Origin: Candidatus Eiseniibacteriota bacterium
Lineage (GTDB): Bacteria; Eisenbacteria; RBG-16-71-46; JABDJR01
Direction: 5' to 3'
DNA length: 64,000 nucleotides
Assembly: GCA_963783375.1 (NCBI GenBank)
Contig: CAWANH010000022.1
Coordinates: forward strand, 1 to 64,000
A program made the position numbers and the translations under genes. A model generated the notes under the pieces. The model had not been told where the DNA came from, did no database searches, and saw only the letters and a program-made list of their open reading frames with translations. Positions 1 through 50,618 of this stretch are shown here, one piece after another. Numbering within the stretch: position 1 is the stretch's first letter; every line of letters starts with the position of its first letter.

Positions 1-58
1 ATGGCGGGTCGGGGTGTACCGGGGGTCCGGGGGTGAACTCAGCCGGTGGGCGACGCGG

Positions 59-78
59 CGGTGTACCCGGGTGTTCGG
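59..78 (+). repeat. Motif copy (CGGTGTACCCGGGTGTTCGG) upstream of the HNH gene
   Basis: 59-77 is an exact 19-bp match to 1231-1249; 60-78 matches the reverse complement of 1931-1949 at 18/19; a degenerate copy lies at 13-30. Confidence 0.8.
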
Positions 79-186
79 GGACGCTCCCGGCTGAAGCGGG
101 GCGTCCGGCGAGTCATCACGTGTGATCGTCCGGGGAACTCCGTGCCGATGGTTCGCATCAAAAGTGCGGGTTCTACGTTTTTTTGG

Positions 187-215
187 TTGACATATCGATG
201 ACGACCAATCATACT
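187..215 (+). promoter_or_regulatory. Sigma70-type promoter of the HNH gene
   Basis: TTGACA(187-192), 17 bp, CATACT(210-215); T-tract upstream; GGAAGGA RBS before ATG at 265. Confidence 0.65.
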
Positions 216-264
216 TCTGGTATCGACCTTCCCCGTCCAACCTCCTCTCCGGGAAGGACGCATC

Positions 265-1188
265 ATGCCGGTTTACGAGCCCAACCTGCCCGCGCGGCAG
301 GTTCACGGCCGCTTCTCGCGCACGCTCCACGAAGCCGAGGCCGTCCGGAGGAATCTGGTTCTCTGGTTCGCCGACCTCTACCGGCGGAAGCTCTACCTGG
401 AACTCGGCTACACCTCCGTCTTCGCCTACACCGCCGAGCGCCACGGCTTCTCCAAGAGCCGGTGCGTGCAGTTCATCCGCCTGGCCGAGTCCTTGAAGCG
501 GCTCCCCGCGCTCCACGAGTCCCTGGCCGCGGGGGAGATGCCCTGGACCAAGGCGCGGGAGGTGGTGAAGGTGGCGACTCCCGAGACCGAACGCGCGTGG
601 GTCGACGAGGCGAAGCGTTCGAGCCGGCGCGCGCTGGAGCGGAAGATCGCCGTGGCCCGGGGGCGGGTGAAGGAGAGCCGAGGTCCCACGCGCGGCCAGG
701 AGAGCCTGGCGCTGGCGGCGGCGGAGGCGGTGGGGCGGGACCGGGGTTCGGCGGACGAGAACGGCGCTGCGCGTGCGTTACCAGGCGGCGCCGGCACCCC
801 CGCGGTGGAGGGTGCGGGGGAGACGGAGGACGGAAAGCGCCCGAATACCGGTGGCCGGGGGGAAACCGGGGAGGGTCGACGGGCCGCGCTGGTCCACGAG
901 ATCCCCGAGGAGGTCCGTCTTCGCTTCCCCGCGCTCCGGTACGCGGAGTACGGGGCGCTGGTGGAGAAGCTACGCAAGCAGGGATGGAAGGGCCCGGTGG
1001 AGGACCTGATCGTGGCCGGGTTGGCTGCGCTGGCCGGGGAGGGTCGTACCCCGGGGGCGGGAGTGAAGACTTCCGCCGTCTCGGAGTCGAACGTGAAGGC
1101 GTCTTCGGTCGGTGCGGGTGCGGAGGGGAGCGCCGTCCCACGGCCCGGCTCGAACGCGCCATGGGTAGGGGCGCGACCCCGCAGATGA
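265..1188 (+). CDS. DUF222-like N-terminal part of an HNH endonuclease gene (ends at an in-frame TGA)
   Basis: RRKLYLELGYTSVFAY...LAESLKRLPALHESLAAGEMPWTKAREV resembles the helical N-terminus of DUF222/HNH proteins; same frame as the downstream HNH ORF. Confidence 0.7.
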   Translation: MPVYEPNLPARQVHGRFSRTLHEAEAVRRNLVLWFADLYRRKLYLELGYTSVFAYTAERHGFSKSRCVQFIRLAESLKRLPALHESLAAGEMPWTKAREVVKVATPETERAWVDEAKRSSRRALERKIAVARGRVKESRGPTRGQESLALAAAEAVGRDRGSADENGAARALPGGAGTPAVEGAGETEDGKRPNTGGRGETGEGRRAALVHEIPEEVRLRFPALRYAEYGALVEKLRKQGWKGPVEDLIVAGLAALAGEGRTPGAGVKTSAVSESNVKASSVGAGAEGSAVPRPGSNAPWVGARPRR

Positions 1189-1230
1189 GAACCGGCCTGC
1201 TGCGGTCGCTGGCGTGGAGGATCCTCCGCC

Positions 1231-1249
1231 CGGTGTACCCGGGTGTTCG
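1231..1249 (+). repeat. Motif copy inside the HNH reading frame (encodes RCTRVF)
   Basis: CGGTGTACCCGGGTGTTCG, identical to 59-77. Confidence 0.8.
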
Positions 1250-1686
1250 CGAGCACTCCGTACCAGGTGGTGATCCGGCGCTGCGAGGACTGCGGGAGAG
1301 GGGAGGTTCTGACCGGGCGCGGACCGAAGCCGCTCCATCCGGCCGAGCTGGCGACGCTCCTCTGCGATGCCCGGGTCCACCGCCGGGGAGCGAAGAACCG
1401 GGCGGTGATCCCGCCGGCCCTGCGCCGCAGGGTTCTGGAACGGGACGGCCATCGCTGCCGGGTCGCCGGGTGCGGAAGCGGCCGGTTCCTCTCCGTGCAC
1501 CATCGCAAGCCCCGCTCGGCCGGGGGGACGAACACGCCCGGGAACCTGGTGACCCTCTGCGCGAGCTGCCATCGGGCGATCCACGAGATGGGGGAACGCA
1601 CCGGCCGGGAACTTCCGGGTCGGATGTTGAGGGCGCCCGCTCCGGTGATTCCCGAGGGTACTCAGACCCCCTCGGGCCCCGAATGA
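1243..1686 (+). CDS. HNH endonuclease C-terminal domain (probably the 3' part of the gene starting at 265)
   Basis: IPPALRRRVLERDGHRCRVAGC...VHHRKPRSAGGTNTPGNLVTLCASCHRAIH: HNH with Cys pairs; extra CEDC upstream. Confidence 0.85.
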   Translation: MFASTPYQVVIRRCEDCGRGEVLTGRGPKPLHPAELATLLCDARVHRRGAKNRAVIPPALRRRVLERDGHRCRVAGCGSGRFLSVHHRKPRSAGGTNTPGNLVTLCASCHRAIHEMGERTGRELPGRMLRAPAPVIPEGTQTPSGPE

Positions 1687-1849
1687 CCCTGGGCGGGAGG
1701 AGTCCATCCGCGGGTCCACCGCCCGGCCGGGCGCGGCGGGGGAGGATCAACGGCCCTCGGTCCGGCCCGGCGTCGTGGCCGCCGGGCGGCTGTCCGCGAC
1801 ATCGCCGGGTGCCGGCCCGCCACCGCCGTTCTTGCCGCCCCGTCGCACC

Positions 1850-1922
1850 GGCGCACGCATCCCGCCGGCGCACGGCGCACGCATCCGGCGCACCCGTCTC
1901 CCCCGGCACCCGTTCTCCCCGG
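1850..1922. repeat. Short tandem repeats
   Basis: GGCGCAC x4 (1850, 1867, 1874, 1887), then CACCCGTCTCCCCCGG / CACCCGTTCTCCCCGG (1891-1922). Confidence 0.6.
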
Positions 1923-1930
1923 AGACTCGG

Positions 1931-1949
1931 CCGAACCCCCGGGTACACC
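1931..1949 (-). repeat. Inverted motif copy downstream of the HNH gene
   Basis: Reverse complement GGTGTACCCGGGGGTTCGG matches 60-78 at 18/19. Confidence 0.75.

Positions 1950-32833: not shown

Positions 32834-34024
<1,191 letters not shown>

Positions 34025-49427: not shown

Positions 49428-50618
<1,191 letters not shown>

Follow-up and report, generated by a model that had tools for sequence, protein, structure and literature searches.

Genes of the DUF222/13E12 type are multicopy, damage-induced and rearrangement-prone, as described in the available parts of several papers (PMC3381160, PMC13157036, PMC10589994, PMC3592412, PMC2817692, PMC13371061), and 13E12 genes were found to mark inversion breakpoints (PMC13157036, available in part). 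Neither a palindrome serving as the protein's own site nor a ParB-type reading of the protein appears in the accessible portions of these descriptions. REPtrons consist of a gene with co-evolving cognate repeats, which flank the gene, occur in arrays and reach high numbers only in genomes that have it, traits that recur in the family described here (PMC2817692, accessible portion). ParB and Noc, which bind parS and NBS, differ at one base of the site, two bases from its centre, where Noc reads a C:G pair by an arginine; helix 8 of their fold also contacts DNA, and NBS has a terminus-avoiding distribution (PMC7383237, for the part available).

The gene at the start of the 64,000-nucleotide stretch of DNA analysed here (the window) resembles the DUF222/REP13E12 genes in the weak DUF222 matches of its family, its multiple copies and its C-terminal HNH domain. 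It also resembles the parS and NBS systems, in its DNA-binding fold and in a loopless, CG-centred palindrome with the same choice between A and C two bases from the centre (PMC7383237, available part). In contrast to ParB and Noc, the family is devoid of a CTPase domain, is fused to an HNH nuclease, is multicopy and mobile, and carries at least 18 site types; and while ParB is encoded by a single copy beside parA with sites near the origin, five copies lie scattered here. We consider it likely that the gene is a self-targeting selfish element of a new kind. The locus comprises the following features, in window coordinates:

13..25, plus strand: degenerate site with the left arm alone, belonging to an upstream array that extends onto the end of contig C17
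59..77, plus strand: upstream site copy; 14-bp core at 62-75, centred between 68 and 69, 196 bp 5' of the start codon
187..215, plus strand: sigma-70-type promoter, TTGACA-17-CATACT, kept in paralogues (one found, 0.0 in shuffles)
265..1686, plus strand: gene of 473 codons for a ParB/Noc-type DNA-binding domain, a predicted dimer domain and a zinc-ribbon/HNH module, related to DUF222/13E12
343..675, plus strand: ParB/Noc-type DNA-binding domain, residues 27-137 (Z 11.6, rmsd 2.3, 103 residues aligned to Noc 7ol9)
625..627, plus strand: codon of Arg121, the residue that tracks site base -2
901..1035, plus strand: strand-helix-helix segment, residues 213-257, predicted homodimer
1176..1226, plus strand: compensated +1/-1 indel pair creating a TGA at 1186-1188, absent from the C1 copy
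1231..1249, plus strand: internal site copy; core at 1234-1247, centred between 1240 and 1241, 20 nt before the YQV strand
1261..1584, plus strand: zinc ribbon and HNH nuclease domain, Cys/His/Asn motif intact
1712..1726, minus strand: inverted half-site ending the stretch shared with the C1 sister copy
1840..1886, no strand: 24-bp tandem duplication in the right flank
1932..1949, minus strand: inverted site copy adjoining the ABC operon, absent from the C1 copy and kept in the close relative G002

The remainder of the window (1959-64000; the ABC permease reading frame ends at 1959) is ordinary, with an ABC efflux operon and its TetR regulator, a glycosyltransferase cluster, cysS, five tRNAs, an apparent ribosomal protein and rpoBC region and two copies of tuf (32834-34024 and 49428-50618).

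Five full copies of the gene are scattered through the genome. Comparison with the intact copy on contig C1 (97.4% identical) traces the in-frame TGA of the window copy to an additional base at 1176 and a missing base near 1225. The additional base is absent from the contigs of all four runs and the missing one is present in two of the four, contigs that may themselves derive from the sister copy; the TGA is either an assembly error or a private allele. The predicted model of an intact copy shows three ordered parts and neither a CTPase domain nor a membrane helix. For the first part (residues 27-137) the top 12 structural matches are all Noc, ParB or Spo0J, the Z-score given above lying below the mark of about 13 under which the tool advises caution for helical folds. 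Foldseek returned no match at E<=0.001, and a sequence search of solved structures returned HNH domains only. HTH_ParB is matched weakly in 7 of 37 members and DUF222, likewise weakly, in 11 of them (both at E<=0.05), with no DUF222 match in the window's own protein; among the nearest Atlas clusters, DUF222 is found on 21-42% of members. No CTPase family of Pfam is matched in the 37 members, and the ParB/Noc-type domain begins at residue 27 after a single helix. The second part (residues 213-257) may be ribbon-helix-helix-like. Its dimer model scores 0.58 against 0.02 for the best control, with a contact agreement of 92% and a pLDDT of 71; among solved structures that mark is attained by 20 of 30 homodimers and by 1 of 23 monomers, and a similar solved complex may raise the score. 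In the third part, 96 of 98 genes keep the HNH motif complete or almost complete, and the domain is similar to the McrA and Cap5 folds.

At E<=1e-30 the family is matched by 1,413 clusters (50% identity), the closest named relatives coming from assemblies titled Ca. Eisenbacteria, Krumholzibacteriota and uncultured bacteria. It is present in 16 of 206 genomes of the phylum and in 5 of 7 others of the taxonomic family; viral contigs gave two weak matches only. A leader hairpin over the ribosome site is not significant (z -0.5).

The 19-mer that a preliminary description of this DNA reported at 59-77 and 1231-1249 is found exactly at both places on the plus strand, and a third match with two mismatches lies on the minus strand at 1932-1950, giving three matches within 64 kb, where 100 shuffles average 0.02. 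The internal copy is located in the reading frame as had been stated, codes for RCTRVF and is in frame with the HNH module; its distance from the YQV strand is the commonest site position in homologues. An inverted copy said to agree at 18 of 19 positions over 1931-1949 is indeed present, with 17 of 18 over 1932-1949. The degenerate copy placed at 13-30 is credible as a match to the left arm only (7 of 19 positions mismatched), and the one suspected at about 1042-1057, with at least eight mismatches, is indistinguishable from chance. The motif as such is a 14-bp parS/NBS-like site. In the window the internal site is an imperfect palindrome, with 4 of 7 positions pairing; the site has a CCCGGG core, and the protein encodes Arg121. 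Five exact 19-mers occur in the genome, exclusively at the window copy, at the C1 copy and at the end of contig C17, where further copies of the motif are found and which is placed just upstream of the window by synteny.

The site is conserved as DNA among homologues. From 167 loci, the five own copies included, we obtained 111 genes with both landmarks and 98 non-redundant ones. In 46 of the 98, a perfect 14-bp palindrome lies in the last 60 nt of the linker, compared to 0, 2 and 12 in control windows of equal size; those 12 belong to a clade of 14 genes in which the site is found 20 nt past the anchor, over the first zinc ligand and in a different frame. When the peptide is kept and the codons are redrawn, 3.6 perfect palindromes are expected. 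Candidate sites were detected in 87 genes (46 of them perfect, 18 types) and code for TRV, PRG, SRD and other peptides. With regard to whether homologues keep the DNA or merely the peptide, a check proposed at the outset, it is thus the DNA that is kept, the peptide varying while the symmetry stays. An internal site is present in 81 of the 98 genes, and a site of the gene's own type lies within 1 kb of it in 14 of 76 (0.1 expected); no site could be called in 17 of the 98, nor in 18 of 40 further genes. A palindrome encoding VSAET, earlier attributed to related proteins, has a counterpart in a distant subfamily, which carries TGTTTCCGCGGAAACA near the 3' end, there in another frame. Members of the distant subfamily (L172, L174, L274, L275) have a CCGCGG-centred palindrome near the 3' end and in the flanks, with 10 exact copies in genome G021. 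The internal site of one homologue (L267), GTTTCCACGTGGAAAC, is close to canonical parS.

Within the protein, one residue stands out as co-varying with the site. A scan of 254 alignment columns against each base yielded residue 121 and base -2 as the lone outlier (z 6.7, the next pair reaching 2.6). Arg121 goes with C at -2 in 51 of 51 genes and Ser, Ala, Asn or Cys with A in 28 of 29, so that the rule is obeyed in 79 of 80; among the 40 further genes, many of them kin of the first set, all 22 with a callable site obey it as well. Paralogues within a single genome show the link too, each site matching residue 121 of its own gene. With these columns left out of tree building, the residue changes 7 times and the base 8 times; on quick trees the independent pairs number 7 over all branches and only 4 on well-supported ones, all in the same direction (p 0.125). 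For residues 68, 69 and 99 the tests on independent pairs had too few pairs to reach significance, and at bases -4 to -7 the recognition helix did not stand out in the column scan; Asp or Glu at 69 accompanies C at -5 in 34 of 34 genes. Bases -2 and +2 fall on third codon positions when the site is read in its usual frame, and by the genetic code the base switch linked to the residue is silent there. As opposed to the situation in Noc, the co-varying residue is situated in a later helix, and Thr95, the equivalent of G201/R186 by motif alignment, is invariant. The structural matches, in combination with the co-variation, make it very likely that the protein binds the motif through its predicted ParB/Noc-type domain, as the preliminary description had supposed of the nuclease while leaving the reading domain unnamed.

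Sites are dispersed through the genome, and their dispersal is type-specific. The family constitutes the commonest 16-mers of the genome, CTTCCCCGGGGAAG occurring 33 times against 0.45 expected. With arms chosen from the enriched words we count 141 sites, 129 of which lie outside crudely called genes, compared to 19% for all CCCGGG. Across five genomes, three of the types tested number 33, 25 and 23 in the genome with the matching gene and 0-1 elsewhere; for a fourth the counts are 7 in its own genome, 10 in a second, where two copies flank a more distant gene copy, and 1 in a third. A loose CCCGGG pattern has 102-204 matches in four genomes with close homologues and 53 in a fifth, compared to 24-35 in two genomes with distant homologues and 21-42 in seven with none. 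The earlier proposal to look for the motif near HNH paralogues is borne out insofar as the motif is tied to the paralogues; it is also spread through the genome. A genome holds several site types, with fast turnover among congeners. Many orphan sites correspond to the upstream ends of two other gene copies, as pieces 30-180 bp long, tandem arrays are found in 15 of 32 long spacers with sites versus 24 of 386 without, and 27-bp site-bearing duplications occur within genes.

An array in genome G000 (C28:377448-378512) contains 17 family sites of three types with a higher-order period of 240 bp, and similar arrays lie at C28:1544781-1545795 and C29:1605770-1606099. In the same genome 42 of 46 occurrences of the palindrome are followed by an AT-rich tail, TGTTCGC(A/G)ATAA, which is also found ahead of two of the gene copies; near C28:1664900 two orphan tails are arranged as an inverted pair. 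Another abundant palindrome, CCGAGGCCTCGG, has 218 copies on the large contigs of G000 and is not excluded from the terminus.

The family sites avoid the terminus in four of five genomes (G000, G001, G003 and G031), the first three of which belong to one genus and are therefore not independent. In G000, a 1-Mb window picked after the data were seen, centred on the GC-skew switch at C29:496 kb, contains none of 55 site clusters (P about 1e-6 by length), compared to 34 of the 218 copies of the control palindrome. G031 shows a 1.17-Mb gap across the terminus (P 0.00025), G001 and G003 show gaps at the syntenic terminus, and G013 shows none. GC skew taken from 20-kb samples is noisy, and a search with a dif pattern found no dif-like site. 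This distribution resembles that of Noc and its sites in all of these genomes except G013, and would suit a nucleoid factor of the host whose dispersed, non-terminus sites serve the cell in chromosome organisation, division timing or repair, and are selected and hence outlast decay of the gene. Noc is also the best structural match, CCCGGG is the consensus core of the Noc site, and one locus is occupied in three species. We nevertheless regard a role of this kind as unlikely, given the occurrence of the family in 16 of 206 phylum genomes and in 5 of 7 others from the taxonomic family, the several site types per genome with their fast turnover, the HNH domain kept intact in a protein modelled with neither CTPase domain nor membrane helix, and the gapless terminus of G013 next to three avoiding genomes from one genus.

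The gene is mobile at the level of species, in agreement with the empty sites that the earlier account had proposed to look for in relatives: at orthologous loci it is present in some and absent in others. A spacer of 260-290 bp connects the ABC operon of G001 and G004 to the gene that ends contig C17, which identifies C17 as the upstream flank and the locus as empty in these two genomes. G003 has a different neighbour at the operon, and G002 (92%) keeps the site at 1932 and breaks at 1720. The locus on C3 is empty in three relatives. Of 18 loci in congeners, 13 have both flanks syntenic in G000, where 11 are devoid of both the gene and any listed site; the other two are one locus (G000:C28:197-200 kb, L189 and L200), occupied in three species. 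At that locus the three genes have different site types and different nearest paralogues, which suggests replacement in place. At the strain level, the bubble contigs of the own assembly contain no family site, and none of the best-supported joints listed runs across the gene.

A fixed 1.9-kb unit bounded by terminal inverted repeats at 59 and 1949, as initially envisaged, does not emerge from these comparisons: the window and C1 copies diverge near 1727, at the inverted half-site, and a flanking copy accompanies the gene in only 14 of 76 cases. What the six G001 copies often have in common runs from the upstream site, near -190, as far as one at the stop codon, and the copies of G003 end elsewhere; no fixed ends or target duplication were seen in these between-species comparisons, which blur ends. 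A whole-element search of G031, with full, split and divergent copies set aside, left 14 short fragment loci among the 30 matches listed, 12 of them covering the site (1.2 expected), a count for which 40 of 461 candidates were scored and in which a perfect site aids detection. Two of these fragments have internal deletions, which fits decay as well as copying.

The internal site, far more constant (81 of 98 genes) than the flanking one (14 of 76), might alternatively be an operator only, through which binding within the own gene, perhaps looped to the upstream copy, restrains a toxic nuclease that spreads by another route. The gene has a strong promoter of its own, and in this genome true parS likewise lies inside parB. 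It is nonetheless doubtful that this is the whole explanation: the 141 mostly intergenic sites, the site-centred fragments and the arrays would stay unexplained, neither a RAYT nor an adjacent transposase was found, and about 118 bp separate the upstream copy from the -35 box downstream of it. An operator role and a Noc-like role in the host are not mutually exclusive.

We favour self-directed spread. In this view the protein, as a predicted dimer, would bind the 14-bp palindrome kept in its own reading frame, its HNH domain would make a nick or cut close by, and repair by the host would place copies of the surrounding DNA elsewhere. Full genes, often with sites at their ends, would result from long copy tracts, and site-centred fragments, orphan sites and tandem arrays from short tracts or from deletions that spare the bound DNA. 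The scarcity of sites near the terminus would be accounted for if breaks in this last-replicated region often found no sister template. Binding inside the gene may in addition dampen its own expression. Cutting near the site is probable, and copying by cut and repair is, on balance, the route of spread that we would put slightly ahead of even odds.

Rather than spreading itself, the nuclease could act in addiction or defence, bound sites marking self DNA or titrating the enzyme, with cutting set free once the gene is lost or foreign DNA enters; its HNH domain resembles the McrA and Cap5 folds and its distribution is patchy, but stand-alone copies in ordinary spacers with no partner gene, and many near-identical copies per genome, render this improbable. 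That the motif belongs to another factor or reflects peptide conservation is highly improbable, even though a GTAC-N4-GTAC palindrome, likely a LexA-type box, precedes a second lexA (G000:C29:1653650-1653690) and related 13E12 genes are LexA-bound in M. tuberculosis (PMC3381160, available part), because the site tracks residue 121 of its carrier gene also among the paralogues of one genome. Each candidate was rejected on its own grounds as well: 17 of 27 GTAC-N4-GTAC sites have a CCGG spacer and the two commonest family types misfit a LexA box, chromosomal ParB has separate canonical parS (three sites at parB, C28:768-770 kb), no Y1_Tnp match (PF01797) as expected of a RAYT occurs in the 97% complete genome, and symmetry persists in spite of peptide change.

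Self-directed spread of this kind would set the family apart from the mobile elements to which it is otherwise comparable. REPtrons encode a HUH/Y1 tyrosine transposase in place of the HNH nuclease found here, and their gene is always flanked by two inverted REPs, as against a flanking site in 14 of 76 genes here. The preliminary description had noted that no HUH transposase is present, and no RAYT was found in the genome; a REP-like hairpin logic does not carry over, the site being a loopless double-strand palindrome inside a reading frame. Insertion sequences of the DDE type have a DDE transposase, fixed terminal inverted repeats and a target duplication, whereas here no DDE family was found, as had been noted before, and the shared ends vary. 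Free-standing homing endonucleases combine an HNH or GIY-YIG nuclease with a separate DNA-binding domain. The family shares with them this pairing and, as proposed here, spread by host repair; homing genes, however, lack an intact target and move to one allelic site, whereas here the site is kept and many unrelated loci are reached, no family site being found in 11 empty gaps of G000. To IscB/HEARO the similarity is confined to the HNH part (53.6 bits versus a cut-off of 175), and these systems are RNA-guided, whereas the specificity here tracks a protein residue; the guiding once considered for this nuclease finds no counterpart in an Rfam match within 1-2000.

In the openly accessible literature searched, no paper on an own-site palindrome in DUF222/HNH genes was found. 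We see an even chance that the family represents a new class of selfish element, in which a ParB/Noc-derived reader joined to an HNH nuclease would keep its own site in its reading frame, reprogramme that site at silent codon positions through switches of single residues, spread by self-directed breaks rather than a transposase and leave REP-like, terminus-avoiding repeats, DUF222/13E12 being its widespread form. A large family to which no function is attached thereby gains a candidate binding site and a direct test, and the dispersed palindromes of bacteria would have a second origin besides RAYT/REP. As each gene states its own target, the family is a ready-made catalogue of ParB-type proteins with their DNA sites, in which at least 18 specificities are represented and one residue-base rule can already be seen; pairs of this sort could be put to use as orthogonal DNA labels or site-specific nickases. 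The terminus gap, finally, which resembles that of Noc, would link selfish spread to chromosome replication or to use by the host.
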